From a virus (Duplodnaviria; Heunggongvirae; Uroviricota; Caudoviricetes), in the IMG/VR virus record IMGVR_UViG_3300028042_000002, positions 66,050 through 130,049 of that record: 64,000 nt of DNA, one strand, 5' to 3'. Positions 5,339-34,295 of this stretch are shown piece by piece; the first letter of the stretch is position 1; each line of letters opens with the position of its first letter. A program made the position numbers and the translations under genes. The notes beneath the pieces are model-generated. The model saw only the letters and a program-made list of their open reading frames with translations, did not search any database and had not been told where the DNA came from.

Positions 5339-5655
5339 AGGCATCTATCGTAAGAGTCCCTACTTTTGCGAAAGCTCATTTTGGGCATCCCAGCCCAAGT
5401 TCGCGGCAAAAGCTTAACGGGACTAATTATAATCTTCGATGCCCCGATTCGTCCTGCGTCCGTGACGTCTTCGTACAAGTATCGTTTCACTCGATGAACT
5501 ACGACACCACTACCTCAAATGACCTTTACGGCGATGAGAGCTGTTTTTCACCTTCTTCGTCAGTTCACTCTCGTTCTCAACTACGAATGCGCTAAACAGC
5601 ATCGCCTATCGGGGACTAATCGCCTTCGTTTCACTCTCCATGGCGATCAGCGCAT
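5339..5655. other. GC-rich (about 50% GC) noncoding island; candidate structured RNA or origin with TTCACTC and CGGGACTAAT direct repeats
   Basis: Abrupt composition shift. Long imperfect hairpin (ggcatc..gatgcc, agtccc..gggact, cttttgc..gcaaaag). TTCACTC occurs three times. Confidence 0.45.
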
Positions 5656-7003
5656 GAACAAAACTTCTATTAAACATCTTCTTTTAAGCGAATTAAATAA
5701 ATATAAAACTCGTTTATCGGATGAACCATCATTATACATCAATAATACTATTTATAACAAGTTAAAAGTTGTGAATATTAATAATTTTAAGAAGTATTAC
5801 CCAAAATTAACCCGAGTTGAAATCACAAATTTATTATATCTTATTATAAATCATAACTTTATCCATTTAAAGCAAGATGATAAACAAGGTTATAATATCA
5901 TAAAAATTTATGAAGTTTCAGGAATAAACGTGCAAGTTGGCAGAAAGATATTTACTTCTAAATTATTTACCGAACTTTTAAAATTATTACTTGACAATGA
6001 AATTATTATCAAAGTTAAAAATTATCAAAGTAAGTCACACTCCAACCAATATAAATTAAATGATAATATTATTAGCAAGATGACCACATGCCAAGGTAAA
6101 ATTATTAAATTATCGCCATTCGTCCTAAAATATAAAATTAAATTTTGCACATTAAAAATAGTTAAAACTGTTAAAGATGATATATATCCATACAAATATT
6201 TATTATTAAGCACACTAAAAACTTTAAATACTGTCCAATTTCCAACCATTGAAGAAGTTGAAAAACGATTAGATGAGGCTGTTAAAAATGGTGAAAGTAA
6301 CAAAGGTAAAATATATAAAAATTATAATGATTATAGAAATCTTGTTGACAAATCTAAATATACAAACATTCAAAACATTAAAAAAGTGTTTTTATATTTA
6401 ACAACTGGATTGATATTTTCAAGGAGTGAAGAGTTTGGCAGAATTTATACATCATTTAATATGATACCAACTATCACTCGCAATATGTGTAAATTAAATA
6501 ATAATGAATTAGTTGGATTAGATTTTAATGCACTCCATCTTAATATTGCACAATCATTAGCAGTTAAACATTATGACCATGATATTAAAGATTATAATGA
6601 AATTACTCATGATAATATTGCATCCTATATGAAAATATCACGTCAAGAGGTCAAAATAGACAATTTAAGCCTACTTAACCGAAATTTGGAAGATGGGTAC
6701 GACTATAATAATAAACGTTGGGAAAAAGGCTTAATAGGAACTCCTACAGTAAATTACTTTTTAGAGTGCATCCCAGTTTTATATAATTATATTGTACAGA
6801 AAGGCGATAAAGGTATTACAAAATTTCTATTTAATATTGAAACTAAATTGATGGATAAAATTGCTATGAAATTGTTATATAGTGGTATTAATTTTATGTA
6901 TATTTTTGATGAGATAATGGTAGAGTCGAAGTATAAAATTAATGTTAGAAAGTTGATGCTGATGGAAGCTAAAAGAATGTGGATATTGGCAGGAGTTGGA
7001 TAA
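5654..7003 (+). CDS. large conserved protein of the 3-copy module (possible primase/replication-initiator component); start reset to MNKTS
   Basis: About 60% identity to the 61826-63166 ORF. The N-terminal extension in the ORF track lies in the GC island and is not conserved in the paralog. Confidence 0.55.
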   Translation: MNKTSIKHLLLSELNKYKTRLSDEPSLYINNTIYNKLKVVNINNFKKYYPKLTRVEITNLLYLIINHNFIHLKQDDKQGYNIIKIYEVSGINVQVGRKIFTSKLFTELLKLLLDNEIIIKVKNYQSKSHSNQYKLNDNIISKMTTCQGKIIKLSPFVLKYKIKFCTLKIVKTVKDDIYPYKYLLLSTLKTLNTVQFPTIEEVEKRLDEAVKNGESNKGKIYKNYNDYRNLVDKSKYTNIQNIKKVFLYLTTGLIFSRSEEFGRIYTSFNMIPTITRNMCKLNNNELVGLDFNALHLNIAQSLAVKHYDHDIKDYNEITHDNIASYMKISRQEVKIDNLSLLNRNLEDGYDYNNKRWEKGLIGTPTVNYFLECIPVLYNYIVQKGDKGITKFLFNIETKLMDKIAMKLLYSGINFMYIFDEIMVESKYKINVRKLMLMEAKRMWILAGVG

Positions 7004-7072
7004 ATTTTAGACAAAATAAAACCACCTTTTACAGTGGCTTCTGATGATGATTTAAATTTATATACTTATTAT

Positions 7073-7339
7073 TTATTTAATATTTTCTAAATATGACATT
7101 GCATTATCCAATAAATAAATTGGTGTGATATATTCAGAATTTTTACATTCATTCAACCATACTACAGATTTATTGTTAGATCTTGAAATTAATTCAGTTG
7201 AAATATATACACGATGAATAGCGAGACCATTTGATTTATTTGTTTTTGCTGTGTTGAAAAATAAACCTTTATTAGATGCTAATGTTTTAATATTTTCAAT
7301 TTTTAGGTTGATTAATTGTGCGTTAGTTAATGTAGTCAT
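7073..7339 (-). CDS. small early protein, MTTLTN family
   Basis: N-terminus is MTTLTN. Conserved promoter, UTR and SD upstream. Confidence 0.5.
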   Translation of the reverse strand: MTTLTNAQLINLKIENIKTLASNKGLFFNTAKTNKSNGLAIHRVYISTELISRSNNKSVVWLNECKNSEYITPIYLLDNAMSYLENIK

Positions 7340-7389
7340 AATATTTATTCCTGTTAGTTTGGTTTGCTTTATTGCTTAACATGCAAAGA

Positions 7390-7417
7390 AGTATACTCTT
7401 ATTTTCATTATTGTCTA
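7390..7417 (-). promoter_or_regulatory. early sigma70-like promoter (TAGACA-16-TATACT)
   Basis: Part of a conserved cassette. Confidence 0.5.
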
Positions 7418-7493
7418 GTTATTTATTCAATTATTTTAAATGAATTTAATTATTCAACAATATCAACAACTTACCAACTTAGTCATATAATAA

Positions 7494-7501
7494 TATAAAT
7501 A
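7494..7501 (+). promoter_or_regulatory. T4-late-type promoter TATAAATA
   Basis: TATAAATA lies 37 nt upstream of the 7538 ATG, in the conserved cassette 'catataataatataaatattaataacc'. Confidence 0.5.
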
Positions 7502-7537
7502 TTAATAACCATCCTCCAACCATATAATAATATAAAA

Positions 7538-7951
7538 ATGTCCGATAAAATAGCAGAATTCCTTGATATTTCAGAACTGTCAACCATTGATGAAACTACA
7601 CCCATTATGGATATAGTCACTCATACACATAATAATACTGACATAAAATTAAACAGTATTACAGATTATGCCGAAGTTCGAGCCAACCTTAAACGATTAT
7701 CAACAAAAGGTATGCAGGTGATTGATAGTCTTGCTAAAATGGCAATAGAGGCTCAATCTGCTAGAGATTATGAAGTTTTAACATTATCATTAAAGAATTT
7801 AACTGAAATTAATTTAAGTTTATTAGATGTTAATGAGAAAGCTGGTAAATTGTTGATAGATGAACGAATGTTGAATGAAAATGGGAAAGGTGTGGATGAT
7901 GGAACAATTGATGTTACAGTTGAGCAGTTGCAGAAATTATTAAAAGAATAA
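7538..7951 (+). CDS. hypothetical late protein
   Basis: ORF after a late promoter. Hairpin terminator follows. Confidence 0.5.
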   Translation: MSDKIAEFLDISELSTIDETTPIMDIVTHTHNNTDIKLNSITDYAEVRANLKRLSTKGMQVIDSLAKMAIEAQSARDYEVLTLSLKNLTEINLSLLDVNEKAGKLLIDERMLNENGKGVDDGTIDVTVEQLQKLLKE

Positions 7952-7997
7952 AAAACCACCTGTTAAAGTGGCTTGGATAGAGTTTCAAGGGGAACGA

Positions 7998-8273
7998 TTA
8001 TAAAATTTCAATAATATCATCAGCCCATTCATTTAAGGACAAATAAATTTCATTTTTTGGAATATCATTATCTTTAACATATTCCAAAAAATCATCTATT
8101 AAATCAATAAGTTGGCTATGCGAGATTACTTCCATTTTACCATATTCAGTTAATATAATTTCAAGCTCATTAATAAGTTTAATATTTTTATGATTGGATA
8201 TATGGAGAATATTTTTCAGATTATTTAATCTGTTAATTTGGATTTCAATTTTATCGAGTGTTAATGCAGTCAT
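7998..8273 (-). CDS. small acidic early protein (MTALT start)
   Basis: ORF with an N-terminus related to the MTTLTN family. Confidence 0.45.
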   Translation of the reverse strand: MTALTLDKIEIQINRLNNLKNILHISNHKNIKLINELEIILTEYGKMEVISHSQLIDLIDDFLEYVKDNDIPKNEIYLSLNEWADDIIEIL

Positions 8274-8312
8274 AATTTGGCTAGTCCTGTTTAGTATTAG
8301 TTTATTTAATGA

Positions 8313-8504
8313 TTATTTAGTAACAAGCTCAACAAGATTAGTTAAATCTTTATTTGTAATATTATCATTATCAATGTCATTTACTAAATTTTCACATAAT
8401 GATTTAAGTTGTTCAATTTCATCATTAATATTACTAACTTTACGATTTAATTGAATTTTAAGAGTGGTTACTACAATTTTATTACTTTGAGATATTTTAG
8501 TCAT
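8313..8504 (-). CDS. small early protein
   Basis: ORF with the conserved 'cctgttag' SD region upstream. Confidence 0.4.
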   Translation of the reverse strand: MTKISQSNKIVVTTLKIQLNRKVSNINDEIEQLKSLCENLVNDIDNDNITNKDLTNLVELVTK

Positions 8505-8596
8505 AATCTTAATTCCTGTTAGTTGTTTAAGTTGTTTCGATATGAAAGAGTGTACTCTTATAATATCAACAAGTTACCAACTTAGTCATATAATAA

Positions 8597-8604
8597 TATA
8601 AATA
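8597..8604 (+). promoter_or_regulatory. T4-late-type promoter TATAAATA
   Basis: Conserved cassette upstream of 8632. Confidence 0.45.
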
Positions 8605-8631
8605 CTTAATATCACACCGCACTAGCACAAT

Positions 8632-9156
8632 ATGCCATATTTCAGTCAATTTAATAAAATTAATTACACGTTTGACAGTAACCATAAAGCAACCTTAGTT
8701 AATATCACTCAAAATATAATTCTTAAAAATAATCAAATACGTGATACAACTTTATATTTTAATTATAATATTCAAGATGGTGAAAAAGCTGAACATATTT
8801 CTAATAAATTTTATCGTACACCTGAATACCACTACATAATTTTATTATTAAATGACATCATCAACCCATATTTTGACTGGTGTGTAAGCGGACGAGAGTT
8901 AGAAAGTTTTATAAATGATAAATATGGTTCAACCGTAAATGACGTGCATCATTATATAGATTTAGCTGATAATAATAGGCAGATTGATGATTATGATAGT
9001 GTGAAAATTGGAGAAATGGCAACTATACCAGCCAATATATCAATAGTTACAAATAGAGACCATGAAATAGCGTTAAATGAAGGTAGAAGGCTGATAAAAC
9101 TTATCTCAAGTGATTATATTCTTGAGATAGTGGAAGAGTTTGAAGGATTGTTTTAA
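8632..9156 (+). CDS. hypothetical late protein (possibly structural)
   Basis: 174-aa ORF after a late promoter. Confidence 0.5.
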   Translation: MPYFSQFNKINYTFDSNHKATLVNITQNIILKNNQIRDTTLYFNYNIQDGEKAEHISNKFYRTPEYHYIILLLNDIINPYFDWCVSGRELESFINDKYGSTVNDVHHYIDLADNNRQIDDYDSVKIGEMATIPANISIVTNRDHEIALNEGRRLIKLISSDYILEIVEEFEGLF

Positions 9157-9242
9157 CTTTTAGACTATGAAAAGTGACTTTTAGGTTTAAACTGATTAGA
9201 TGAATTACAATTAATTCAACACATTGATTGTCGAGTGATTAT

Positions 9243-9539
9243 TTAAAACGATTTATAACTTTTACATTCAATTACACCATTAATAAAATCTCTATACGTT
9301 TTAATAATATTATTTAATCGAATTTCTTGTACATCAAAATCAATTTCATTTAAATTATATAAAAATCTTTCACAACTTTTATCACCATTTAATAAAATAT
9401 CTATTTCATATGCTACCAAAGTATGATAACCTTTTTCATTTCCCATTGAAATCATCGTGAATATTAACAATTCAAGTTGGTCAATAATTGTATGATTAGA
9501 TGTTTCAACACTTTTAATACATTTTCTTGAGATTTTCAT
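9243..9539 (-). CDS. small early protein
   Basis: ORF with the conserved SD cassette. Confidence 0.45.
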   Translation of the reverse strand: MKISRKCIKSVETSNHTIIDQLELLIFTMISMGNEKGYHTLVAYEIDILLNGDKSCERFLYNLNEIDFDVQEIRLNNIIKTYRDFINGVIECKSYKSF

Positions 9540-9624
9540 AATATTTATTCCTGTTGGTTAATTCAAGTACCTTATTATAATGATTTTTAAGGTAATGTCC
9601 AGATTTATTTAATTATTTTTGAAA

Positions 9625-9918
9625 TTAGATTAAATCTTCGGCAATACTTTCAGCACTATTGTAAACAATTTCATCATCTTCATTGTAATAATAAAAACTA
9701 TCACAACATTGTTCAGTATCATCAATCCAAATTTCATCATCTAAAATATCATCTTTTGGGTCATCAGTTGGACAATATGTATTAGTGCATAAAAATTCAT
9801 ATGTTACTTCACCGTAACCATTAACACCAATTCTTGCTGATGTTGAATTGTTATCCATTAAATCTAAATAAATTTGAGCAACTTGTAATGCAATTTCAGA
9901 GTTTGTTAATGTAGTCAT
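9625..9918 (-). CDS. small acidic Cys-containing early protein, MTTLTN family
   Basis: N-terminus is MTTLTN. Conserved promoter cassette. Confidence 0.5.
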   Translation of the reverse strand: MTTLTNSEIALQVAQIYLDLMDNNSTSARIGVNGYGEVTYEFLCTNTYCPTDDPKDDILDDEIWIDDTEQCCDSFYYYNEDDEIVYNSAESIAEDLI

Positions 9919-9968
9919 AATATTTAATCCTGTTAGTTAGTTAGGCTTTATTGCTTAACTTGGATACT

Positions 9969-9996
9969 ATTATACTCATTTTTTAATACATGTCAA
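9969..9996 (-). promoter_or_regulatory. early sigma70 consensus promoter (TTGACA-16-TATAAT)
   Basis: Minus strand reads TTGACAtgtattaaaaaatgagTATAAT. Identical to the one at 13316-13343. Confidence 0.6.
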
Positions 9997-10070
9997 CTAA
10001 ATTATGAAATTAATTAAAGTTATTTTAATTATCTAATAATATCAACAACTTACAAACAGTCATATAATAA

Positions 10071-10078
10071 TATAAATA
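10071..10078 (+). promoter_or_regulatory. T4-late-type promoter TATAAATA
   Basis: Conserved cassette upstream of 10119. Confidence 0.45.
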
Positions 10079-10118
10079 TTAACAACCATCTCCACACCGT
10101 ATAATAATATAATCAAAT

Positions 10119-10769
10119 ATGGCTACTAATTTTTATTTAAATCATTATGAAAGCAAACCTGAACAAAATTTAATAGAAAGTTTAACTATTGAAGCTATCA
10201 AATATTGGGGAATGGATGTATTTTACCTACCTCGCACCAGTTTAGAACGTGATAATATTTTGGGTGAAGACATTAAAACAGTATTTAAAAATTCTCATAT
10301 GATTGAAGTATATTTTGAAAATGTTGATGGTTTCGAGGGTCAAGGCAACTTTTTATCAACTTTTGGAATGCAAATTAAAGATAATGCAACATTAATTATA
10401 AGTAAATCAAGATTTCAACAAGTTGTATATGGTAAAGTAAGACCAATGGAAGGGGATTTAATTTATTTACCATTATCCAATTCAATATTTGAAATTAATT
10501 TTGTCGAGCATGAGAACCCATTTTATCAAGTTGGTAAATTATTCACATATAAATTAACGTGTGAATTATATACACATAGTCATGAAGATTTTGAAACTGG
10601 TAATGTTAATATAGATGGGATAATGGCGGACTTTGATGATGTTAAAATGGTGAATAGTGCAGATAATATTGATATTCAGAATGAAAGTGATGTAATAGTT
10701 AAGGATATTGAAAATCCTAAAGATGAATTTGAGAATATTGCGGATAATGACCCATTTAATGGATTTTAG
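10119..10769 (+). CDS. hypothetical late protein (possibly virion-associated)
   Basis: 216-aa ORF after a late promoter. Confidence 0.5.
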   Translation: MATNFYLNHYESKPEQNLIESLTIEAIKYWGMDVFYLPRTSLERDNILGEDIKTVFKNSHMIEVYFENVDGFEGQGNFLSTFGMQIKDNATLIISKSRFQQVVYGKVRPMEGDLIYLPLSNSIFEINFVEHENPFYQVGKLFTYKLTCELYTHSHEDFETGNVNIDGIMADFDDVKMVNSADNIDIQNESDVIVKDIENPKDEFENIADNDPFNGF

Positions 10770-10774
10770 GCAAA

Positions 10775-10800
10775 ATAAAACCACCTGTTAAAGTGGTTTC
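10775..10800. terminator. bidirectional hairpin terminator (AAACCAC-loop-GTGGTTT)
   Basis: Stem aaaccac/gtggttt with a T-run on the minus strand. Member of a recurring hairpin family. Confidence 0.5.
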
Positions 10801-10828
10801 ATGATGTTTCACTTGGAATAATTAATAA

Positions 10829-11419
10829 TTATAAATTCATTAAACTTTTTAAATCATCATTTGCAACGGCTAATTTCATTGCTTCAAGTTTATCATTTTG
10901 TAATTTTACAATTTCTTCTTGTTGATTAATGATTTTATTTACAAGTTGTTGTTCCATATCAGATAATTCAACTTTAGTTGTTACTTCTTCGTCATTATTA
11001 AACATTTTATCAAATTCAATCATGAATTCATTAATAATTGAATATAGTGCATCATCCAAAGTATTCCATTTTTCTTCACAATCCATTGTTGGTTTCTGAT
11101 AATTATCATTAGTAATTTCTTCATTATCATTTTCCCAATCTTCAAAAAATTGTTTATTATCTAATTCAATATTAAACCTTTTCATAATTTTTAACAAGTT
11201 AATGCCACTTTCACTATTTGATAATTCACTCATTTCAAAAAGATTAATCATTTCATTATGTAAAGTTAATTCTTCAACATTAGCACCAAAACACCCATTT
11301 CCATTGGTATCACAACCATTTGAGTAATATTGATAATGTCCACCCTTATTTACTTGATTTACATAATTTGATAATAAAGTTTCTAAACGAGTTGTTTCAG
11401 TTGTAGTTAATGTAGTCAT
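10829..11419 (-). CDS. acidic early protein, MTTLTT family
   Basis: N-terminus is MTTLTTTE. Conserved cassette upstream. Confidence 0.5.
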   Translation of the reverse strand: MTTLTTTETTRLETLLSNYVNQVNKGGHYQYYSNGCDTNGNGCFGANVEELTLHNEMINLFEMSELSNSESGINLLKIMKRFNIELDNKQFFEDWENDNEEITNDNYQKPTMDCEEKWNTLDDALYSIINEFMIEFDKMFNNDEEVTTKVELSDMEQQLVNKIINQQEEIVKLQNDKLEAMKLAVANDDLKSLMNL

Positions 11420-11471
11420 AATATTTATTCCTGTTAGTTAATTAGTTGTTTAAGTTGCTTCGATATAAAAG

Positions 11472-11499
11472 AGTATACTCCCATTTTCACTATTGTCTA
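11472..11499 (-). promoter_or_regulatory. early promoter (TAGACA-16-TATACT)
   Basis: Conserved cassette. Confidence 0.5.
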
Positions 11500-11621
11500 G
11501 TTATTTATTCAATTATTTTAAAATAAATTAATTATCTAATAATATCAACAAGTTACCAACTTAGTCATATAATAATATAAATATTAATAACCATCAAATC
11601 ACTTTATAATAATATAAAACT

Positions 11622-11909
11622 ATGTCAAAACCTGCTCATCGCACCACCGATTTATGCACTGGTCATTCATGTTACCCGCCACGCCGAAGTAAAACAGGTT
11701 CACCAGATGTCATAATAAATGATAAATTGGCTCATAGATTAGGTGATAGTTGGAATACTCATTCATGTGGGAGGTATGGTCATAAAGGTGAAACTGTAAC
11801 CGCATCTATGTATGTTATTATAAATGATAAAGGGTGCGCACGAATTGGGGATGATGTGAGTTGTGGTAGTGTGATAATGACAGGTTCAAATGATGTTATA
11901 GTTGATTAA
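11622..11909 (+). CDS. gp5.4: PAAR-repeat tail-spike tip protein (T4 gp5.4-like)
   Basis: 95 aa. PAAR-like motifs: 'AHRLGDSW', 'ARIGDDVSCGSVIMTGSNDVIV'. Cys/His-rich. Late promoter upstream. Confidence 0.7.
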   Translation: MSKPAHRTTDLCTGHSCYPPRRSKTGSPDVIINDKLAHRLGDSWNTHSCGRYGHKGETVTASMYVIINDKGCARIGDDVSCGSVIMTGSNDVIVD

Positions 11910-11911
11910 TA

Positions 11912-11940
11912 AAAACCATCATAAAAGGTGGTTTTTTTAT
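11912..11940 (+). terminator. rho-independent terminator
   Basis: aaaacca-N10-tggtttt followed by a T-run. Confidence 0.55.
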
Positions 11941-11957
11941 TGAAAAATAATTATTAA

Positions 11958-12650
11958 TTATCTAGCTAACATTACATATCTAGCATAATCATAACCTTGT
12001 GTATCAATATAAATAGTTTCTCTGTCTGTTGATACTAATGCAAATCCTGTCCAATAATCAATATTATCAGTTTCTTCATTATAACCATCATCAATATATG
12101 AAACATTAAACTTTTTACGACTTTTAAGTAAATTATTTACAATTTTATCATATTTTTTAGTTTTAACATTGATAATTTTAATCACTTTAAATTTAGTTTC
12201 AATGAATTTCTGCTCACATTCAAACCGAACCTCACCAATTGTACAATTTTTATTTAACCATGGATTTTTAACATTAACAATTTGATTAAGTTGTGGTAAA
12301 TATGATACACATTCACAATTTTGTAATGCTTCTGTACGGTTAATTCTATATAAATCTTTAGCTTTTTGTTCATCATCTTCCCGCTTCCAAATTTTAAATA
12401 AAAATTCATATTCAGTATCTAAAATATTTTGAAGATTAACTTTAACATCAGCTAAAGTTTTAAATGTCTCTAAATATCCCATACCATTCATTAAATATTC
12501 TTTAGTATCAGGTTTTAAATTAAAAAATATACACCAACCTCCAAATTGTTTTTGGATATAAACATCGGCGAAATATTTTGTGTCTTGAGTTTCATATTTA
12601 CAACTGCTTTCATCATATTTAGCTTTAATTCTAGTATAAGTACGTTTCAT
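11958..12650 (-). CDS. hypothetical protein
   Basis: 230-aa ORF with an early promoter cassette upstream. Confidence 0.5.
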   Translation of the reverse strand: MKRTYTRIKAKYDESSCKYETQDTKYFADVYIQKQFGGWCIFFNLKPDTKEYLMNGMGYLETFKTLADVKVNLQNILDTEYEFLFKIWKREDDEQKAKDLYRINRTEALQNCECVSYLPQLNQIVNVKNPWLNKNCTIGEVRFECEQKFIETKFKVIKIINVKTKKYDKIVNNLLKSRKKFNVSYIDDGYNEETDNIDYWTGFALVSTDRETIYIDTQGYDYARYVMLAR

Positions 12651-12801
12651 AATTTTTAATCCTGTTAGGTTGCGGTTAAAAAGTTAACTAATTTGCTTAA
12701 CTTGGATACTATTATACTCATATTTTAACTATTATCTAGTTATTTATTCAATTATTTTAAAATGAATTTAATTATTCAACAATATCAACAACTTACCCTC
12801 A

Positions 12802-13197
12802 TTATCTCAACCTTTGCAAATATAAATTAGTTGTAATATTATCAATTTGATTAAATATTTTATATACTATCTCAATATTATAACCATCGACACCGTCCGC
12901 AAATACATCAATTTTTATTAAATTTATTCTATTTATATACTTATTAATAAGAAAATCCAAACTAGATTTAATAGACAATGCTGTTATGGTGGTTGCAGGC
13001 TCAAATAATAATGATTTCAATGATTTACTATAATCAATATTAAATTTAAAATCACGATAATCAGACATAATTATATGTTTTAATTGTCTATTTATAGATG
13101 TTTCATTGGTTAAAATATTGATATCATTGTTAAGCGGGTGTACATTGAAATTTAAATCCACGTCTGTATATATAATAGAGTTGATATTATTGGGCAT
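12802..13197 (-). CDS. gp25: baseplate wedge protein, gp25/GPW-like
   Basis: The pattern 'YTDVDLNF..HPL..DI..L.N..SI..SLK.LL..' and 'LLFEP...INRINLIKIDV' resembles the T4 gp25 family. Late promoter on the minus strand upstream. Confidence 0.5.
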   Translation of the reverse strand: MPNNINSIIYTDVDLNFNVHPLNNDINILTNETSINRQLKHIIMSDYRDFKFNIDYSKSLKSLLFEPATTITALSIKSSLDFLINKYINRINLIKIDVFADGVDGYNIEIVYKIFNQIDNITTNLYLQRLR

Positions 13198-13233
13198 ATT
13201 GCGATAAGAAATAAGGTGATTAGAGGTTATTAA

Positions 13234-13241
13234 TATTTATA
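13234..13241 (-). promoter_or_regulatory. T4-late-type promoter TATAAATA (minus strand)
   Basis: The reverse complement tatttata is followed by 'ttaataacc', as in the other cassettes. Confidence 0.45.
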
Positions 13242-13315
13242 TTATTATAAATTTGATTGTAAGTTGTTGATATTATTAGATATTTAAATTCATTTAAAAT
13301 AATTGAATAATTTAG

Positions 13316-13343
13316 TTGACATGTATTAAAAAATGAGTATAAT
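13316..13343 (+). promoter_or_regulatory. early sigma70 consensus promoter
   Basis: TTGACAtgtattaaaaaatgagTATAAT, followed by the conserved leader 'agtatccaagttaagca' and an AGGAAT SD. Confidence 0.6.
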
Positions 13344-13394
13344 AGTATCCAAGTTAAGCAGTAACCAATTAATCAACTAACAGGAATAATTATT

Positions 13395-13535
13395 ATGAAC
13401 ATGAATAACTTTGTTAAAATGGCGTTAGAAACTGCAATTGAAATTACAGGTAAAGATGGTAAAGATGAAGAAACACAAAAAATTGCATTTGAATTAGCAT
13501 GTGTAATGATGGCTGATGAATTAGCAAATAATTAA
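13395..13535 (+). CDS. small ORF (about 46 aa) upstream of parB-like gene; not in ORF track
   Basis: ATG 8 nt after the AGGAAT SD. Encodes 'MNMNNFVKMALETAIEITGKDGKDEETQKIAFELACVMMADELANN'. Confidence 0.35.
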   Translation: MNMNNFVKMALETAIEITGKDGKDEETQKIAFELACVMMADELANN

Positions 13536-13622
13536 ATAACTATTGACAGTACCTTAAAAATCATTATAATAAGGTACTTGAAACATTAAGTAACAATTAA
13601 CTAACTAACAGGAATTAATAAA

Positions 13623-14516
13623 ATGGCTACACAAATCAAAGGTTTAATCGGTGGTACTCGTGCAACTAACTTTTTCAAAATTGACCCAGAATTAATTATT
13701 ATTCAAGAAGGGTTTAATCCTCGCGATAGTTCTAACATTGACCCACTTGAATTATATGAAAGTATTAAAGAAAATGGTGTAGTATCTCCACTTATCATCA
13801 AATTAGATAAAGACGGTAATGTACTTTTAGTTGACGGTGAACGTAGATTAACTACGGTTTTAAAATTGATTGAAGATGGTGTAGACATTCAATCTGTGCC
13901 ATGTTTAAAAATTAACAAATCTCAAGATAACGAAGTTGATTTGTTAATGATGGCAATGATTGCAAACGATAGCAAACAATTAACACCATTAGAATTTAGT
14001 GAGACCTTCGCTAGATTGTTAAAATATGGGTTAAAACCTGCTGAAATTGCTAAAAAAGTAGGTAAAAGTCGGGGATGGGTTGATAATATGATTATCTTAA
14101 ATAACCTTAATCCATCTTTGAAACAAGAATTAAGAAATGGTGTAATTACGTTAAATATTGCGTTGGATATTGTACGTGAAAATCAAGGTGATTATGAAGC
14201 CCAAAATGAAGATTTTAAAATCATTACTGAAAATGCTGAAATTATTACTGAAACTGTAATAAATGAAGATAATGAACCAGTTGAAAAAGTTGTTAAAACT
14301 AAATTATATTCAAAAGGGTCAATGAAGCCTGTTAAATTGGGTGTTGCTAAAGAAATTCTTAAGGCAGTTGCATTCAATGATGAAGAATTAGAAGATTTAG
14401 CCAATCTTAAACAACTTATTGATAAATATACAACCGATGATAAAAGTATTTCGAATGTTGAAATGAAAGCATTTGCACTTGGAATGATGGCGGCTAAAGG
14501 TAAATATATGGTTTAA
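13623..14516 (+). CDS. parB: ParB-like nuclease/partition domain protein
   Basis: N-terminal ParB box 'VDGERRLTTV', then an HTH 'KPAEIAKKVGKSRGWVDNMIIL'. 297 aa. Confidence 0.7.
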   Translation: MATQIKGLIGGTRATNFFKIDPELIIIQEGFNPRDSSNIDPLELYESIKENGVVSPLIIKLDKDGNVLLVDGERRLTTVLKLIEDGVDIQSVPCLKINKSQDNEVDLLMMAMIANDSKQLTPLEFSETFARLLKYGLKPAEIAKKVGKSRGWVDNMIILNNLNPSLKQELRNGVITLNIALDIVRENQGDYEAQNEDFKIITENAEIITETVINEDNEPVEKVVKTKLYSKGSMKPVKLGVAKEILKAVAFNDEELEDLANLKQLIDKYTTDDKSISNVEMKAFALGMMAAKGKYMV

Positions 14517-14535: not shown

Positions 14536-14561
14536 TACACTTTGATAATAATGTTAAAGTG
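14536..14561 (+). repeat. stem-loop ACACTTT-N12-AAAGTGT in a repeated regulatory cassette (second copy at 14936-14960)
   Basis: Perfect 7-bp inverted repeat. Both copies are followed by 'ttaaaaatataggaataaattATGaaa'. Confidence 0.5.
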
Positions 14562-14600
14562 TAATTATGATGTGTTAATTTAAAAATATAGGAATAAATT

Positions 14601-14918
14601 ATGAAACCTCAATACGTTAATATCATATTAACATTTGCAATTTTACCATTTTTATTAATTATGGCAAAAGTATATAATATAATTGAAGCTGAACGATTGG
14701 CTATTGCATTATTAATAGCATTCTCAATATCATTTATTGTTTTGGTATACAGTAAACATTTTAAAAATTATGAATATCAATCTAATAATTATAAATTAAT
14801 TTATTTTGGGTTAATATGTATTATTTTGTTAATGTGGGGATGGTATTTTACGTTTACATTATTAACATTTTCAATACTTTCGGCGTATGGCGATAAATTA
14901 AATAAATCAATCAAATAA
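14601..14918 (+). CDS. small membrane protein (paralog of 15568-15882)
   Basis: 3 predicted TM helices. Shared motif 'YNIIEAERLA'. Confidence 0.5.
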   Translation: MKPQYVNIILTFAILPFLLIMAKVYNIIEAERLAIALLIAFSISFIVLVYSKHFKNYEYQSNNYKLIYFGLICIILLMWGWYFTFTLLTFSILSAYGDKLNKSIK

Positions 14919-14990
14919 TATTAAACTATATAAACACTTTGATAATAATATTGAAGTGTTCCATCAAATTTAAAAATATAGGAATAAATT

Positions 14991-15211: not shown

Positions 15212-15592
15212 ATGAATATATTTGAGCAGTTTTATATTGATACCAATAAACCAGTTTACCATCATGAAAATAAAAAATATTATGATGTTAATAATACACT
15301 TTATGAATTTGATGATATTGAATGCACGTTAACAGAAATTTTAATGGTTCAACAAATTCATAATATTGACGTATTGGAATTTATTATTGAAAATGAATAT
15401 ATTATTAGTGGTATTTATTATGGGGAATATGGTGTACTTATTCATAATCCTGATGCACATGAAATTTTATTATATATTAGAAATTATCGTAATAAAGTTG
15501 AAGCGACTGTCAAATCATATAAAGAATTAAATTATGAAATTAATCCACTTAAAAAATATCAAAACTTTTGGAACTTGCGGAGAATTACCTAA
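15212..15592 (+). CDS. hypothetical protein
   Basis: 126-aa ORF. Confidence 0.45.
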   Translation: MNIFEQFYIDTNKPVYHHENKKYYDVNNTLYEFDDIECTLTEILMVQQIHNIDVLEFIIENEYIISGIYYGEYGVLIHNPDAHEILLYIRNYRNKVEATVKSYKELNYEINPLKKYQNFWNLRRIT

Positions 15593-15882
15593 CAATGAAA
15601 ATATTATTTAAACAATCATTAATTTACACCACAATAACCATTTTACTATTTAGTTCACATTTTTATAATATTATAGAAGTTGAACGGTTGGCAATGGTTA
15701 TAATTTGGATATATTCGTTGACTTTTATGGATGATGATATAGACGATATCCCATATTTCACATTAGTATATTTTTATTTATTATTAATCCCATTGGCAAT
15801 GTTTGGGTGGTGGTTTACATTAACATTATTATTAATTTCATTGGCAATCAATTCAGATATTGAGGCGTTTACAAATGATTAA
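15568..15882 (+). CDS. small membrane protein (paralog of 14601-14918); true start probably downstream of 15592
   Basis: 'YNIIEVERLAM' and a Trp-rich TM segment shared with the paralog. Confidence 0.45.
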   Translation: MELAENYLTMKILFKQSLIYTTITILLFSSHFYNIIEVERLAMVIIWIYSLTFMDDDIDDIPYFTLVYFYLLLIPLAMFGWWFTLTLLLISLAINSDIEAFTND

Positions 15883-16773: not shown

Positions 16774-16961
16774 AATTATCAGAATTTAATAAAAGTAATG
16801 AAGATGCAAATCATCCATGTTATTTATGTAGAAATAGAATTATACATGATAATAAATATTGTAATTTTCATCCTAAATACGAACCTCATTGTATAATGTT
16901 GGTGTCACCATTTGAATTTTTAAATATGAATAAACTTTGTGATGCTATATCCTCTTCTTAA
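16770..16961 (+). CDS. small Cys/His-rich protein
   Basis: 'CYLC...CNFH' zinc-ribbon-like. Confidence 0.35.
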   Translation: MKLSEFNKSNEDANHPCYLCRNRIIHDNKYCNFHPKYEPHCIMLVSPFEFLNMNKLCDAISSS

Positions 16962-17400
16962 TACCTAATTCATATTCAGTCATTATCTTAAAATTTATGC
17001 CATGTTTAGTACAATATTCATTGGCATATTTCCATTTATCAGTATTCTTACGATAAGTCAATAATTCTTTTAATAATATTACTTTACGTTTACCTTTTTT
17101 TGGAACTGGTTCAATAGTTTCATGATATGGCTTAACTTCGATTAAATCTACTACAATTTCATCACTTTTATTACGATATTTTACTATAAAATCAGGGAAA
17201 TAACGTCTAACCTTTTTATCAACAGATGAATAATATCTTATTACTATGGTTTCACTACCCCACTCTAGGATATTTGGGTCTATGTCAAATCGTACCATCA
17301 ATTTCAATTCCCATGATGATCTATAGATTATATTTTTAACATTGCCTTTATATTTATCAGGATTTGAAGGTGTAAATCGACCTTTTTTAGCTTTATTCAT
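16945..17400 (-). CDS. PD-(D/E)xK-type nuclease-like protein (possible free-standing homing endonuclease)
   Basis: 'YFPDFIV...DLIEVKP' is a D...E.K motif. Lone minus-strand gene after plus-strand genes. Confidence 0.4.
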   Translation of the reverse strand: MNKAKKGRFTPSNPDKYKGNVKNIIYRSSWELKLMVRFDIDPNILEWGSETIVIRYYSSVDKKVRRYFPDFIVKYRNKSDEIVVDLIEVKPYHETIEPVPKKGKRKVILLKELLTYRKNTDKWKYANEYCTKHGINFKIMTEYELGIKKRI

Positions 17401-30605: not shown

Positions 30606-33600
30606 TTGAAACAGTACTTAAATATAACCCAAATTAAGAATAAAATTTATCATAAATATATTGATGAAAATGCTCAAAGGCAGGTAGAATTTACAGATAT
30701 TAAACCTGAATTATTCGTTAAAACCAATAGTGATTATGAAACAGATTATAAAAGTTTTAATGGTGGATATCTTGATAAAGTTGATTTTAATTCTATTAAA
30801 CATGCTCAATCATTTGTATATGAATATAAAGACCATATAGGATTTGATATTTACGGCAATCGTAACTACTGGGCGCAATTTATACATGAATACTACCCTG
30901 ATATTATTAATTATAATAAATCATTATTAAATGTAGTTTCATTAGATATTGAAAATTTGATAGGAGATGGTCGAACGTCACCAACAGAAAGTGCAATGTT
31001 AGCTAAAAATGAAATCACAGTAATTACACTTGGATATAATGGTAAATATTTCACTTTTACAACTAAACCATTTGAAAACAATGATAAAAATGTAATCCAT
31101 ACTCAAGCAAAATCGGAACAAGAATTATTATATAACTTTTTAATGAAATGGCGTGAAATTGACCCCGATATTATTACAGGGTGGTTTATAGACCAATATG
31201 ATATACCATATATTGTAAATAGAATTAGAAACTTGTTAGGTGATAAATATGTTAAATGGTTAAGTCCAAGCGGTAAACAATTTGTGGGGGATGATAGTGT
31301 AAAATACAATGATTATATTCATGATAATAAACATTATGATATATTAGGTATTACAACTTTAGACTACCTTGCAATGTACAAGAAATTTACATTCACTAAA
31401 CGTGAAAAATATTCATTAGATTTTATATCTCATATTGAATTGGGTAAAAATAAGCTAGATTATTCGGAGTATAGTAATTTAGATGATATGTATAATAATA
31501 ATCCACAAAAATACTTTGATTATAATATTATAGATGTAAAATTAATTGATGAGCTTGATGAAAAGTTAAACCTTATCGAATTATGCTTAAACCTTAGCTA
31601 TAAAAGTAAGATTAACTTTGATAAAGTATTTTCACAGGTTCAAATGTGGGATAGTTATATTTATCATGAATTAATGAAAGATAATATTATTATACCACCA
31701 AAGCAAGACCATAATAAATCAGAAAAATATGAAGGTGCGGCAGTAATTGAACCTAAAATTGGTTTGCATAATTGGGTAGTATCATACGACCTTGATGGAC
31801 TTTATCCACATTTAATGATGCAATATAATATTTCACCTGAAACAATCAGAAAAATATTGGATGGTGTAACAGTTGATAAATTGTTAAATAAATCTATAAA
31901 TGTTAATGAATTATTAGAAGGTGATGACGATTTAACATTATGTGCCAATGGTGTGACATTTAGTAAAACTGGTGGAATTATTCCTAAATTAATGAGGGAT
32001 ATTTATAAAGAACGGAAAGAAGTTAAGCAACAAATGTTGAAATATGAACAAATGTTAACAAATGATAAGAATAACAAAGAGTTACAGAATTTATATAGTA
32101 AATGTAAGGTTACTCAAATGGGATTAAAAGTATTTTTAAATTCATGTTATGGGATGCTAGGTAATCAATATTCAAGGTATTATAATATTAATATTGCCGA
32201 AGCTATCACTTTAAGTGGACAATTATCATTAATGTGGATTAAAAATGATATGAATACACAATTAAATAAAGAATTTAAAAATGTTGATGCTGATTATATT
32301 ATTGCGGGTGATAGTGTAGGTTATGAAAGTGAAGTTCATATTAGAAAACTTTTAAATAATGGTAATTATGATTATAAATCTATTAAAATTAATGAATTAT
32401 TTAATATGGTTGATATTGATAATAAATATTTAAATGATGATAAAGGTAAGCAAAGAATATTCAATATGCAAGGTTGGGAGACTTTAACTTACGATGAAAC
32501 AATTCATGAAAATTGCTATAAACCTATTAAATATATTTATCGTCATAAAGTAGATAAGCCAATTTGGAAAGTAAATATTAATAATTGCGAACATATTATT
32601 GTTACGGATGACCATAGTTTAATGGGATATGTCAATACTAAAAATAGATTAAATCATAAGTCTTCAATATTTAAGCGTGTTAAAGTTAAAGAATTAAACA
32701 AGACATCCTTAATTCAAAATAAACATTTGAAAATTCCATTATTAGAGTATGATAATATTGATAGTGATGAAGTGTTGAAATATCAATTCTTAGGTTACAT
32801 GTTGGCTGATGGTAATTATAATCATAAAATGTGTGAATTGAGTGTTGGAATTCAAGATGTTAATGAAATTGAAATTAAATTATTTAAACCATTATTAAAA
32901 GCTAACTTAATTACACGATATACAATCAGAGAAAATCGCCACGATGTTAGGATATATGGTGTAAATATGTTTAATTTTTGTGGTGATATTTGCAATAGAA
33001 CTGGAAAGTTAGAAACTTTGACAAATATTGAAAATTTAGAAGAATATAAAATTAAAGCTTTTTTAAGCGGGTATTTCACTGGAGATGGTCATGCTGGAGT
33101 AACTAACATAAAAGTTTCATCTATACATAAAAATATAATATTAAAAATTAAACGATTATTATTATTAATTAATATTTCTAGCACAATCTTTAAAGATAAC
33201 ACTGAAAATTCTTATAATGGCGTATTTAGTGGAACATTTAATTATGTATTAGTAATAAAAAGTGATTTTAATGAGGTTGCATTTATCTTAAACCGTAAAA
33301 ATGATTATAAAGATTATAATGATACCCCACGTAGAAGATATTTTAAAAAAAATGGATATAATTTTACTCTATCAACAATTAAAAATATAACACCTGTTAA
33401 TAATTACAATGAATTTGTTTATGATATTGAAGTTGAAGACACCCATACATTTTATGCTAATGATTTATTAGTTCATAATACCGACAGTATTTACACTACA
33501 TTTAACCCAATAGTTAAAAACTATGATGATAATTTATCTAACCATGAAATCACTATTAAATTAGATAAATTTTCAAAGTCTAAAATTCAACCAATGATTA

Positions 33601-34295
33601 ACCAATCTTACATAAATTTAGCAGAATATATGCACGCTAAAGAACAAAAAATGAATATGAGTAGAGAAGTTATTGCTAGTCGTGGAATTTGGAGAAAGAA
33701 GAAAAATTATGCTTTAGATGTTTATAATAGTGAAGGTGTAATTTATAATCCACCAAAATTAAAAATCATGGGGTTGGAAAGTGTAAAATCATCAACTCCT
33801 CAATTATGCAGAATTGCTATTACTAAAATTATTGAAATCATGTTACGTGAAGATGAACTAACTTTACAAGAATTTGTATCAAAATTTAAAATAGAATTTA
33901 ATAATGCTCCACTTGAAGATATTGCCAAACCAACAGGGGTTAATGATATCGTAAAATGGGATTATGATGATAAATTTAATAAATGGGGATTTACAACTAG
34001 AACACCTGCTCACGTTAAAGCTAGTATTACATACAATAGATTAATTGATGAATTAGATTTATACACTAAATATAAAACTATTAATAATGGTGATAAGATA
34101 AAATATTTATATTTATTAAAAAGTAATCCACTTTTCACAAATACAATAGGGTTTCCTGATGTTCTACCATCTGAATTTAAACTTAATGAATATATTGACT
34201 ATAATAATCAATTTTATGTTACATTTAAAAAGCCATTGGATAGTTTATGCAATATAATAAATTGGAAATCTGAAAAACTTAAAACATTTTTTTAA
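30606..34295 (+). CDS. gp43: family B DNA polymerase (T4 gp43-like) containing an intein
   Basis: Exo motifs ('LDIENL'), 'GWFIDQYDIPYIVNR', 'SLYPHLMMQYNISPETI'. Motif C is split: ..IIAGD|intein|TDSIYT. Confidence 0.9.
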   Translation: MKQYLNITQIKNKIYHKYIDENAQRQVEFTDIKPELFVKTNSDYETDYKSFNGGYLDKVDFNSIKHAQSFVYEYKDHIGFDIYGNRNYWAQFIHEYYPDIINYNKSLLNVVSLDIENLIGDGRTSPTESAMLAKNEITVITLGYNGKYFTFTTKPFENNDKNVIHTQAKSEQELLYNFLMKWREIDPDIITGWFIDQYDIPYIVNRIRNLLGDKYVKWLSPSGKQFVGDDSVKYNDYIHDNKHYDILGITTLDYLAMYKKFTFTKREKYSLDFISHIELGKNKLDYSEYSNLDDMYNNNPQKYFDYNIIDVKLIDELDEKLNLIELCLNLSYKSKINFDKVFSQVQMWDSYIYHELMKDNIIIPPKQDHNKSEKYEGAAVIEPKIGLHNWVVSYDLDGLYPHLMMQYNISPETIRKILDGVTVDKLLNKSINVNELLEGDDDLTLCANGVTFSKTGGIIPKLMRDIYKERKEVKQQMLKYEQMLTNDKNNKELQNLYSKCKVTQMGLKVFLNSCYGMLGNQYSRYYNINIAEAITLSGQLSLMWIKNDMNTQLNKEFKNVDADYIIAGDSVGYESEVHIRKLLNNGNYDYKSIKINELFNMVDIDNKYLNDDKGKQRIFNMQGWETLTYDETIHENCYKPIKYIYRHKVDKPIWKVNINNCEHIIVTDDHSLMGYVNTKNRLNHKSSIFKRVKVKELNKTSLIQNKHLKIPLLEYDNIDSDEVLKYQFLGYMLADGNYNHKMCELSVGIQDVNEIEIKLFKPLLKANLITRYTIRENRHDVRIYGVNMFNFCGDICNRTGKLETLTNIENLEEYKIKAFLSGYFTGDGHAGVTNIKVSSIHKNIILKIKRLLLLINISSTIFKDNTENSYNGVFSGTFNYVLVIKSDFNEVAFILNRKNDYKDYNDTPRRRYFKKNGYNFTLSTIKNITPVNNYNEFVYDIEVEDTHTFYANDLLVHNTDSIYTTFNPIVKNYDDNLSNHEITIKLDKFSKSKIQPMINQSYINLAEYMHAKEQKMNMSREVIASRGIWRKKKNYALDVYNSEGVIYNPPKLKIMGLESVKSSTPQLCRIAITKIIEIMLREDELTLQEFVSKFKIEFNNAPLEDIAKPTGVNDIVKWDYDDKFNKWGFTTRTPAHVKASITYNRLIDELDLYTKYKTINNGDKIKYLYLLKSNPLFTNTIGFPDVLPSEFKLNEYIDYNNQFYVTFKKPLDSLCNIINWKSEKLKTFF
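32313..33479 (+). mobile_element. intein (389 aa) with LAGLIDADG homing endonuclease, inserted in DNA polymerase motif C (DTDS)
   Basis: Starts with Ser after AGD. Block B 'IIVTDDHSLMGY'. LAGLIDADG motifs 'FLGYMLADGNY' and 'FLSGYFTGDGH'. Blocks F/G 'VYDIEVEDTHTFYANDLLVHN', followed by +1 Thr. Confidence 0.85.

Follow-up and report, generated by a model that had tools for sequence, protein, structure and literature searches.

An orphan ParB-family gene with its own consensus early-type promoter in an AT-rich T4-like phage genome

The ParB-family gene and its predicted pocket

The DNA studied here, called the window below, is a 64-kb stretch of a tailed-phage (Caudoviricetes) genome (IMG/VR record IMGVR_UViG_3300028042_000002, positions 66,050 to 130,049). 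It represents about half of a contig of ~ 130 kb, and every window-wide negative result reported below covers that half. Our subject is an open reading frame (ORF) of the ParB family at 13623-14516, referred to as parB, together with the mini-ORF at 13395-13535 and the promoters that accompany the two. Both ORFs lie where a first-pass annotation of this DNA had placed them, and the GERRL motif that it had noted occupies residues 72-76 of the parB product (nt 13836-13850). Sequence comparison and structure prediction agree that the product is a ParB-family protein, in which a predicted N-terminal domain (NTD) of the ParB-CTPase fold is followed by a ParB-type helix-turn-helix (HTH). The parts of the gene are listed here; structures were predicted with AlphaFold2 (AF2), and their confidence is given as the predicted local distance difference test (pLDDT).

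13623-14516, + strand: orphan ParB-family gene, 297 amino acids (aa), recognised by Pfam, PHROG, NCBIfam and PDB sequence matches, AF2 and Foldseek
13698-13934, + strand: ParB N-terminal (ParB-CTPase fold) domain, residues 26-104, recognised by Pfam and alignments, pLDDT mostly >90
13977-14177, + strand: ParB-type HTH domain, residues 119-185, including GKSR150, recognised by Pfam and PDB alignments, pLDDT 91-97
14205-14513, + strand: C-terminal 103 residues (195-297), acidic, with a predicted beta-hairpin and three helices, pLDDT 41-59

Among the profile searches, the Pfam family HTH_ParB (PF17762) matched residues 119-185 with 35.1 bits against a cut-off of 22.6 (E = 1.6e-8), and KorB (PF08535) matched the HTH region only, with 22.8 bits against a cut-off of 22.3 (9e-5). 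PHROG 1033, annotated as 'ParB-like partition protein', covered residues 1-194 at 1.7e-42. A phmmer comparison with PDB sequences retrieved Thermus Spo0J (1.3e-12) and also the ParB proteins of Helicobacter and Bacillus, Noc and KorB. The AF2 run with an alignment of 83 sequences, which is the model used throughout, gave pLDDT values mostly >90 across residues 20-200, that is, the NTD and the HTH; the run from the single sequence was uninformative (pLDDT 44). The best Foldseek matches of this model were Noc (7nfu), KorB (8qa9) and the ParB proteins of Myxococcus, Caulobacter and Bacillus, all with a probability of 1.00, and 101 predicted viral proteins matched it at E<=1e-3. The ParB fold and the HTH proposed in the first-pass annotation were therefore recovered by the profile search that it had recommended, in which ParB_N came just short of its cut-off, and, in agreement with it, by PHROG 1033, PDB sequences, AF2 and Foldseek.

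Among the phage orphan ParB-like proteins, the known and common kind collected in PHROG 1033, the protein is a new and divergent member. Its nearest relatives share ~ 40% identity over the N-terminal 60% and sit on phage-like contigs rich in small unannotated genes, one group of them directly past genes for dUTPase, carbamoyltransferase, thymidylate synthase and dCMP deaminase; no ParA was called near the relatives on these phage contigs, some of which reach 320-500 kb (jumbo-phage size). Two members from phages with names, gp089 of phage 7-7-1 and the 'nucleoid occlusion protein' of phage Milano, have the same NTD and HTH, no adjacent ParA and 35-39% identity to the protein. The 7-7-1 homologue, from a lytic Agrobacterium phage, is preceded by an annotated TTGACA..TATAAT promoter and by a small hypothetical ORF, and it has replication and nucleotide-metabolism genes nearby. 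The differences from the PHROG 1033 group are that only the N-terminal ~ 65% aligns, and that a Thr at the third Arg of GERRxR and the canonical Arg of GKSR occur only in the present protein. Our literature searches found no experimental study of this phage family. The exact protein is a singleton in a collection of 5.8 billion proteins, where it is recorded on the 130-kb contig and on a 58.6-kb ENA contig. A search of IMG/VR with the single protein as query gave no close relatives, and the alignment as query gave distant relatives only. For residues 195-297, no homologue but the protein itself was found among 1.84 billion representatives, and by this comparison the C-terminal region is lineage-specific.

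The residues of the nucleotide pocket were mapped onto the mutant classes of Caulobacter (Cc) ParB described by Jalal et al. (PMC8367383), using the alignment of 83 sequences, in which the 15 closest relatives were compared with 67 canonical ParBs. Class I comprises the residues that bind cytidine triphosphate (CTP), namely, R60, S74, G79, R103, R104, N136 and R139, while loss of the class II residues Q58 and E135 leaves binding intact and abolishes hydrolysis (PMC8367383). In the phage protein, box I reads FNPR, the C-motif has S47 and G52, box II reads GERRLTT, and box III reads IANDSK (residues 113-118), just past the NTD. Six of the seven class I positions are kept: R34, S47, G52, R74, R75 and N115, corresponding to Cc R60, S74, G79, R103, R104 and N136. 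The equivalent of Cc E102 (E73) is kept as well. R34, S47, G72, E73, R74 and R75 are invariant in the 83 aligned sequences, and G52 and N115 are nearly so. From the residues kept at these six Cc positions and at E102, we infer that the protein binds a nucleoside triphosphate (NTP). By alignment, the conserved residues of the NTD are those of the ParB-CTPase nucleotide pocket, with no sign of nuclease activity; the label 'nuclease-like' in the first-pass annotation goes back to an old name of the domain (PMC8367383).

Both class II residues are replaced, Cc Q58 by N32 and Cc E135 by A114. At the box I position, Asn is found in all 15 closest relatives versus Gln in 66 of the 67 canonical ParBs; at the box III position, the same 15 relatives all have a residue other than Glu, versus Glu in 66 of 67. 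In this alignment, the loss of the hydrolysis residues is thus a trait of the clade and not a peculiarity of this protein alone.

The canonical Arg of the GKSR motif in the HTH (R150) is kept in the phage protein and absent from its phage relatives. The code that distinguishes parS from NBS reads RTAG in ParB and QKKR in Noc (PMC7383237). At the corresponding positions, the phage protein has R150, M156, N161 and N178 (R-M-N-N), which makes both parS and NBS improbable as its DNA site.

Mobile elements widely encode orphan ParB-CTPase-fold proteins, most of them without a known function (PMC12704722), and by the definition of that survey the sequence qualifies the present protein as an orphan ParB. 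No ORF of the window contains a deviant Walker A motif (KGGxGK[ST]), and tblastn over the window with Bacillus subtilis Soj gave a best E of 1.8; the earlier observation that no ParA lies nearby was correct for the whole window. The ParA-binding motif, written as (L/F/I)G(K/R)G(L/F/I), tracks with a parA neighbourhood in the survey of the Le laboratory (PMC12704722). No match to it was found in the protein, whose N-terminus reads MATQIKGLIGG, and it occurs in none of the 15 close relatives versus 55 of the 67 canonical ParBs.

As for DNA sites, with up to three mismatches parS (TGTTNCACGTGAAACA) had 5 matches in the window against 2.0 expected, a number that 8 of 100 shuffles reached; the 5 matches are three sites, two of which were counted on both strands. 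One of the near-parS sequences, the 16-mer TGTTTCAGGTGAAATA with two mismatches to TGTTNCACGTGAAACA, lies at 31829-31844, inside the DNA polymerase gene, although the pooled matches are not above chance. KorB OB-like sites in the window were at chance level, no Noc NBS-like site was found there, and no recurrent GC-containing palindrome was detected in the window. Palindromes, perfect or nearly so, and recurring half-sites of palindromes did not exceed chance in the window. The search for parS-like palindromes recommended in the first-pass annotation thus yielded none above chance.

Promoters, leaders and stem-loops around the gene

The sequences upstream and downstream of parB contain the following features, in order of position.

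12802-13197, - strand: gp25-like baseplate wedge gene (phrog_261 match), directly upstream of the mini-ORF and parB and divergent from them
13234-13250, - strand: T4-late-promoter-like motif TTATAATAATATAAATA, facing the divergent gp25-like wedge gene; the other half of a bidirectional intergenic cassette
13316-13343, + strand: putative promoter P1, a perfect TTGACA-16-TATAAT upstream of the mini-ORF
13375-13387, + strand: leader and Shine-Dalgarno (SD) block AACTAACAGGAAT, ending 7 nt before the mini-ORF ATG
13395-13535, + strand: mini-ORF, 46 aa, an ORFan supported by its promoter and conserved leader
13543-13570, + strand: putative promoter P2, a perfect TTGACA-16-TATAAT between the mini-ORF and parB, directly upstream of parB
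13548-13556 and 13570-13578, no strand assigned: perfect 9-bp inverted repeat AGTACCTTA-N13-TAAGGTACT, bracketing the -10 box of P2
13603-13615, + strand: leader and SD block AACTAACAGGAAT, second copy, with its end 7 nt ahead of the parB ATG
14536-14563, + strand: hairpin with a 12-bp stem including two G.U pairs, 20 nt past the parB stop and followed by the conserved leader of the next gene

Perfect TTGACA-N15-18-TATAAT sequences occur five times in the window, where 0.69 are expected; in 100 shuffles, a count of five was never reached. P1 is the strong promoter on which the first-pass annotation based its suggestion of immediate-early expression. The promoter is present, and a sigma70-type sequence of this strength makes early timing plausible; the timing itself is deduced from it. 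The same annotation described parB as having an upstream mini-ORF driven by a consensus promoter. The mini-ORF does have P1, but parB has P2 of its own, and the mini-ORF appears as a separate ORFan gene between two cassettes of a repeated type. P2, its 9-bp inverted repeat and the repeated cassette family had been missed.

Both promoters have counterparts elsewhere in the window. The 28-mer of P1 is identical to 9969-9996 (-), and it is part of 140 nt (13225-13364) that form an inverted copy of 9948-10087 with 89% identity. The arms of this repeat flank a 3.1-kb segment holding late and early genes, and homologous recombination between them could invert the segment. P2 has a paralogue at 9574-9601 (-) with a single mismatch, and the 57 nt around it (13526-13582) share 93% identity with 9562-9618. 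The inverted repeat AGTACCTTA/TAAGGTACT was found only at P2 and at its paralogous promoter (9566-9596). Folded as RNA, the repeat at P2 has a free energy of -9 kcal/mol (z = -2.55); the paralogous one is decayed, with 8 of 9 bases matching and a hairpin z of -0.18. The P2 hairpin is not followed by a T-run, and no intrinsic terminator is predicted there.

The leader block AACTAACAGGAAT has 8 copies at <=2 mismatches against 3.6 expected, all upstream of ORF starts on the early strand. Ten aligned regions share a common order of parts: an AT-rich stretch, a -35/-10 pair, and AACTAACAGGAAT ending 7-8 nt before an ATG. A second motif of the late type, ATATAATAATATAAATA, which contains the T4 late-promoter consensus TATAAATA, has 13 matches at <=2 mismatches against 2.8 expected, and its perfect or one-mismatch copies sit upstream of late structural genes. 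In the region 5500-13400, the gaps between genes are repeated bidirectional cassettes of ~ 140-200 nt, with a sigma70 promoter and AACTAACAGGAAT on one strand and ATATAATAATATAAATA on the other. Four early ORFans on the - strand there (7073-7339, 8313-8504, 9625-9918 and 10829-11419) share their leaders and their first codons, ATGACTA; the two that were translated both begin with MTTLT. The common first codons indicate that the repeated cassette reaches into the 5' coding ends.

This arrangement matches the promoter-early stem-loop (PeSL) cassettes of T4-type phages (Arbiol et al. 2010, PMC2839356; Comeau et al. 2014, PMC4122927). A PeSL consists, in order, of an upstream stop codon in an AT-rich stretch, a sigma70 promoter, a stem-loop between or overlapping the promoter boxes, and an SD with a start codon (PMC2839356), and PeSLs flank small ORFans in hyperplastic regions (PMC2839356, PMC4122927). 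At the parB locus, we found a stop in an AT-rich stretch, the sigma70 consensus, the stem-loop, and an SD with an ATG, repeated and beside ORFans. The order of parts, the stem-loop over the -10 box, the repetition of cassettes beside small ORFans and the T4-like genome are common to both. The cassettes here differ in that their stems are AT-rich instead of GGGG...CCCC, and in that several are bidirectional, with the T4-late-type TATAAATA on the other strand. We assign them to the PeSL type by sequence layout, and any promoter, attenuator or recombination activity is putative. The inverted repeat of P2 would be the stem-loop of such a PeSL-like cassette, acting either as a hairpin in RNA that reads through from P1 or, on the DNA, as an operator.

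The mini-ORF is most likely the first of two adjacent cassette genes, of which parB is the second, each with its own predicted early promoter. A metagenome gene caller places its start at 13401, for a length of 44 aa. The predicted 46-aa protein is acidic (pI 4.25, charge -5.5); the databases hold no homologue but itself, and it has no Pfam, PHROG, NCBIfam or PADLOC match. An ORF of this length arises in 3% of shuffles of the region, so that its status as a gene rests mainly on the promoter and the conserved leader. A role as a leader or upstream ORF of parB was rejected, given that parB has its own promoter and leader and that both units copy the same cassette type.

The region of the hairpin downstream of parB has a free energy of -13.9 kcal/mol (z = -4.0), and the hairpin recurs after the next gene, at 14933-14960. 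The differences between the two copies keep the stem paired, exchanging Watson-Crick and wobble pairs, and each copy is followed by TTTAAAAATATAGGAATAAATTATG. The G.U pairs in the stem at 14536-14563 indicate a structure that forms in RNA, and the two hairpins look like cassettes of an RNA-level attenuator or stabiliser. No Rfam element was matched in the window.

Candidate roles of the protein

These observations raise the question of what a ParB-family protein might do in a phage when no ParA accompanies it. The reading we favour, with roughly even confidence, is a ParA-independent, NTP-gated early DNA-binding regulator or clamp, and we propose that parB serves as an early accessory gene within a cassette-rich (hyperplastic-type) region of a T4-like myovirus. 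Judging from the promoter sequence, host RNA polymerase would transcribe parB right after infection, with P2 as the main promoter and with some read-through from P1, perhaps attenuated by the stem-loop. The protein would bind an NTP, most likely CTP in view of the conserved pocket residues, and N32 and A114 suggest that turnover would be slow or absent. Its HTH would recognise a specific DNA site other than parS and NBS. NTP binding, slow turnover and recognition of a non-parS site would together make the protein a ParA-independent, NTP-gated regulator, which could act on phage or host DNA early in infection as a clamp or a switch. In function, it would then resemble KorB, VirB, BisD or the entry-phase protein HerB and not a partition protein.

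Several points weigh against this reading. The Pfam family ParB_N (PF02195, residues 26-104) reached 25.9 bits, slightly below its cut-off of 26.3, and the NCBIfam partition family TIGR00180 reached 54.8 bits, below 58.45. The protein is acidic overall, with a pI of 4.9. Cc R139 has no exact equivalent; S117 and K118 stand there, and canonical ParBs have one residue more in box III. At the third Arg of GERRxR, the protein has T77, where all 82 aligned homologues carry R, K or Q. With a shorter box III, no Arg at the R139 position and T77, NTP binding could be weakened or lost. In the survey of ParB-fold proteins, NTP binding of any kind was seen for only 11 of the 28 that were purified, with ATP or GTP as the ligand of some (PMC12704722). 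The 297-aa protein has no Pfam match to the ParB C-terminal dimerisation domain (PF23552), and with no recognisable dimerisation domain and a C-terminal model of low confidence, clamp formation is putative. No binding site for the protein turned up in the window searches, only about half of the ~ 130-kb genome is in view, and the early timing rests on the promoter sequence.

The nearest functional parallels are mobile-element ParB-fold CTP switches that regulate transcription instead of partition, namely, KorB of RK2, VirB of Shigella and BisD. KorB is a sliding clamp turned repressor (PMC11790492), and the likeness to it lies in the PF08535 score slightly over the cut-off and in PDB entries 8qa8 and 8qa9 among the best structural matches. 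It differs in that the window holds no OB-like operator above chance and in that no KorA- or TrbA-like partner was identified; the regulatory role of the phage protein is presumed. HerB (YfjB), from the leading region of the F plasmid, is an orphan of the ParB-like type that combines a CTP-binding domain and an HTH with a novel C-terminal module; it is made at cell entry, binds the host chromosome and reprograms transcription (PMC13370423). The phage protein is likewise an orphan ParB-like protein of a mobile element with an NTD, an HTH and a distinct C-terminal part. HerB is, however, roughly twice as long (residue numbers up to 625) and has a structurally defined novel dimerisation domain (PMC13370423). 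The comparison is drawn at the ParB core, and binding of the phage protein to host DNA is putative.

Among the alternatives, a Noc-like or host-takeover factor survives best, although we consider it unlikely. Such a factor would bind many sites on the host nucleoid, possibly with a membrane tether formed by its N-terminal helix, and would block division or silence or reprogram host transcription. Noc is the best NCBIfam match by a small margin (TIGR04285, 2.4e-15) and also the best Foldseek match (7nfu), AF2 places a short helix at residues 2-8, and HerB sets a precedent for a host reprogrammer of the entry phase (PMC13370423). However, the TIGR04285 score of 56.6 bits is far below the cut-off of 315, the R-M-N-N code is not QKKR, and no NBS-like site was seen in the window. 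The N-terminal helix has a pLDDT <50, and as a candidate for a Noc-like amphipathic helix its hydrophobic moment is unremarkable (67th percentile).

Another important question is whether the protein could be a true partition or positioning ParB, which would position the replicating phage DNA or maintain a carrier or pseudolysogenic state. It would need a centromere-like site on the phage and either a ParA from the half of the genome outside the window or a host ATPase of the ParA/MinD type. By sequence, chromosomal Spo0J/ParB comes closest to the NTD and HTH, and the protein shares with it the fold of both domains, GERR, the box I Arg, the cytosine-contacting S/G and the box III Asn. Moreover, Arg150 of GKSR is canonical, unlike in the phage relatives, the N-terminal QIKGLIGG loosely recalls LG(K/R)GL, and 64 of ~ 130 kb are in view. 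Set against this, the protein differs in several respects from ParB/Spo0J, the CTP-dependent sliding clamp of the ParABS system: ParA, parS and PF23552 are absent from view, TIGR00180 falls short of its cut-off, both class II residues are substituted, and the specificity code is R-M-N-N and not R-x-x-G. The ParA-binding pattern goes unmatched, and this motif tracks with a parA neighbourhood (PMC12704722). The architecture of the phage is T4-like and lytic, and the relatives also lack an adjacent ParA. We therefore regard a partition role as quite improbable.

An accessory or targeting subunit of DNA modification, comparable to the ParB activators of thymidine dioxygenases (5mYOX) or to ParB-methyltransferase fusions, has in our view a similarly small chance of being correct. 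The 5mYOX-associated phage ParBs consist of a nucleotide-binding domain and a C-terminal domain, with no DNA-binding domain; they are encoded beside a 5mYOX dioxygenase gene and activate the cognate enzyme (PMC13229309). A weak PHROG match to a family of ParB-domain methyltransferases (phrog_498, 8e-5) speaks for this role, as does the position of a close relative, P0003 (locus L004, 1373-5839), just downstream of genes for dUTPase, carbamoyltransferase, thymidylate synthase and dCMP deaminase. These pyrimidine-metabolism genes suggest that the phage of P0003 may have a pyrimidine hypermodification pathway. In contrast to the 5mYOX partners, the present protein has a confidently predicted HTH. 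No dioxygenase, methyltransferase, kinase or glycosyltransferase domain was found in the nine ORFs tested around parB, and the genes downstream of it are small ORFans and genes for membrane proteins. The locus also gave no PADLOC match that would link it to defence or anti-defence. Of the roles listed in the first-pass annotation, partition, DNA modification and anti-defence thus gain no support from the context, in which a ParA-binding motif, parS, a modification enzyme and a PADLOC match are all missing.

A further possibility, to which we give little credence, is that the protein recognises AGTACCTTA-N13-TAAGGTACT at its own promoter and at the paralogue (9562-9618), repressing these promoters or assisting recombination of the cassettes. 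In favour of this, a perfect repeat frames the -10 box of P2 and has no copies other than those at the two paralogous promoters, and several ParB-family proteins, KorB among them, repress their own operons. The half-sites, however, are 22 bp apart from centre to centre, whereas known sites of the family, such as parS, NBS and OB, are palindromes of 13-16 bp without a gap. The likeness of the two copies, which are paralogous, may reflect nothing more than common descent, the second copy is decayed as described above, and a PeSL RNA attenuator would explain the repeat without any protein. Arbiol et al. did speculate that a specific DNA-binding protein might target the stem-loops of PeSLs (PMC2839356), which would fit such a binder. 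Finally, a nuclease that degrades host or competitor DNA is scarcely credible: the historical domain name 'ParB-like nuclease' and a weak Pfam match to GmrSD_N/DUF262 (4.9e-4, below the cut-off) point to it, but the conserved residues are those of an NTP pocket, the layout of NTD and HTH is that of DNA-binding ParBs, and Pfam finds no HNH or other nuclease domain.

If the NTP-gated regulator is taken one step further, the protein and its 15 closest relatives might constitute a distinct phage clade of ParA-independent ParBs, perhaps hydrolysis-deficient, NTP-locked clamps that are expressed from a consensus early promoter, persist on the host chromosome or on the repeated promoter cassettes of the phage and silence or reprogram transcription during takeover. 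We regard this extension as speculative and unlikely as a whole; if true, the clade would be the phage counterpart of the plasmid proteins HerB or KorB. ParB-fold proteins have recently been shown to act as transcriptional silencers (KorB), anti-silencers (VirB), host reprogrammers (HerB) and enzyme activators (5mYOX-ParB). The locus gives a clean further case, in a lytic T4-like phage, of a protein with its own consensus early promoter, a unique C-terminus and the clade-wide replacement of both hydrolysis residues, and it is a reasonable candidate for slow or non-hydrolysing phage ParB switches in host takeover. On the present evidence, it extends a large family by another uncharacterised member and does not represent a new kind of system. 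Of secondary interest are the PeSL-like early promoters that stand back to back with motifs of the T4-late type in this very AT-rich phage.

Genome setting and neighbouring genes

By its gene content, the source is a novel, AT-rich T4-like myovirus. The window has a GC content of 25%, and megablast of the locus and of 25 kb found no near-identical or similar phage genome in INPHARED. The gp23-type major capsid protein shares 51% identity with Stenotrophomonas phages of the Moby/IME-SM1 group. Other T4-like genes in the window encode the portal, terminase, tail sheath, gp19, gp2, gp53 and the T4 neck protein, as well as a PAAR protein, a T4-type DNA polymerase, an RNA ligase and a ribonucleotide reductase.

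Upstream of parB, at 5500-13400, late structural genes are interleaved with small ORFans encoded on the other strand. Among the structural genes of this region are the gp53-like gene (8632-9156), the T4 neck protein gene (10119-10769), the PAAR gene (11622-11909) and the gp25-like wedge gene listed above.

Downstream of parB, two ORFs on the + strand, at 14601-14918 (105 aa) and 15568-15882 (104 aa), encode small predicted hydrophobic proteins. They share the motif YNIIE(A/V)ERLA and are apparent paralogues, for which no family match was found. The cluster of early ORFans on the + strand that the mini-ORF and parB open is closed by a 151-aa ORF on the - strand (16945-17400) with a TnsA-like endonuclease N-terminal domain (1.3e-20). 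Farther away, the T4-type DNA polymerase ORF (30606-34295) encodes 1229 aa and carries an insertion of ~ 340 aa (~ 32450-33480). The insertion matches Intein_splicing (1.1e-13) and LAGLIDADG_3 (9.1e-12), and these matches identify it as an intein with a homing endonuclease.

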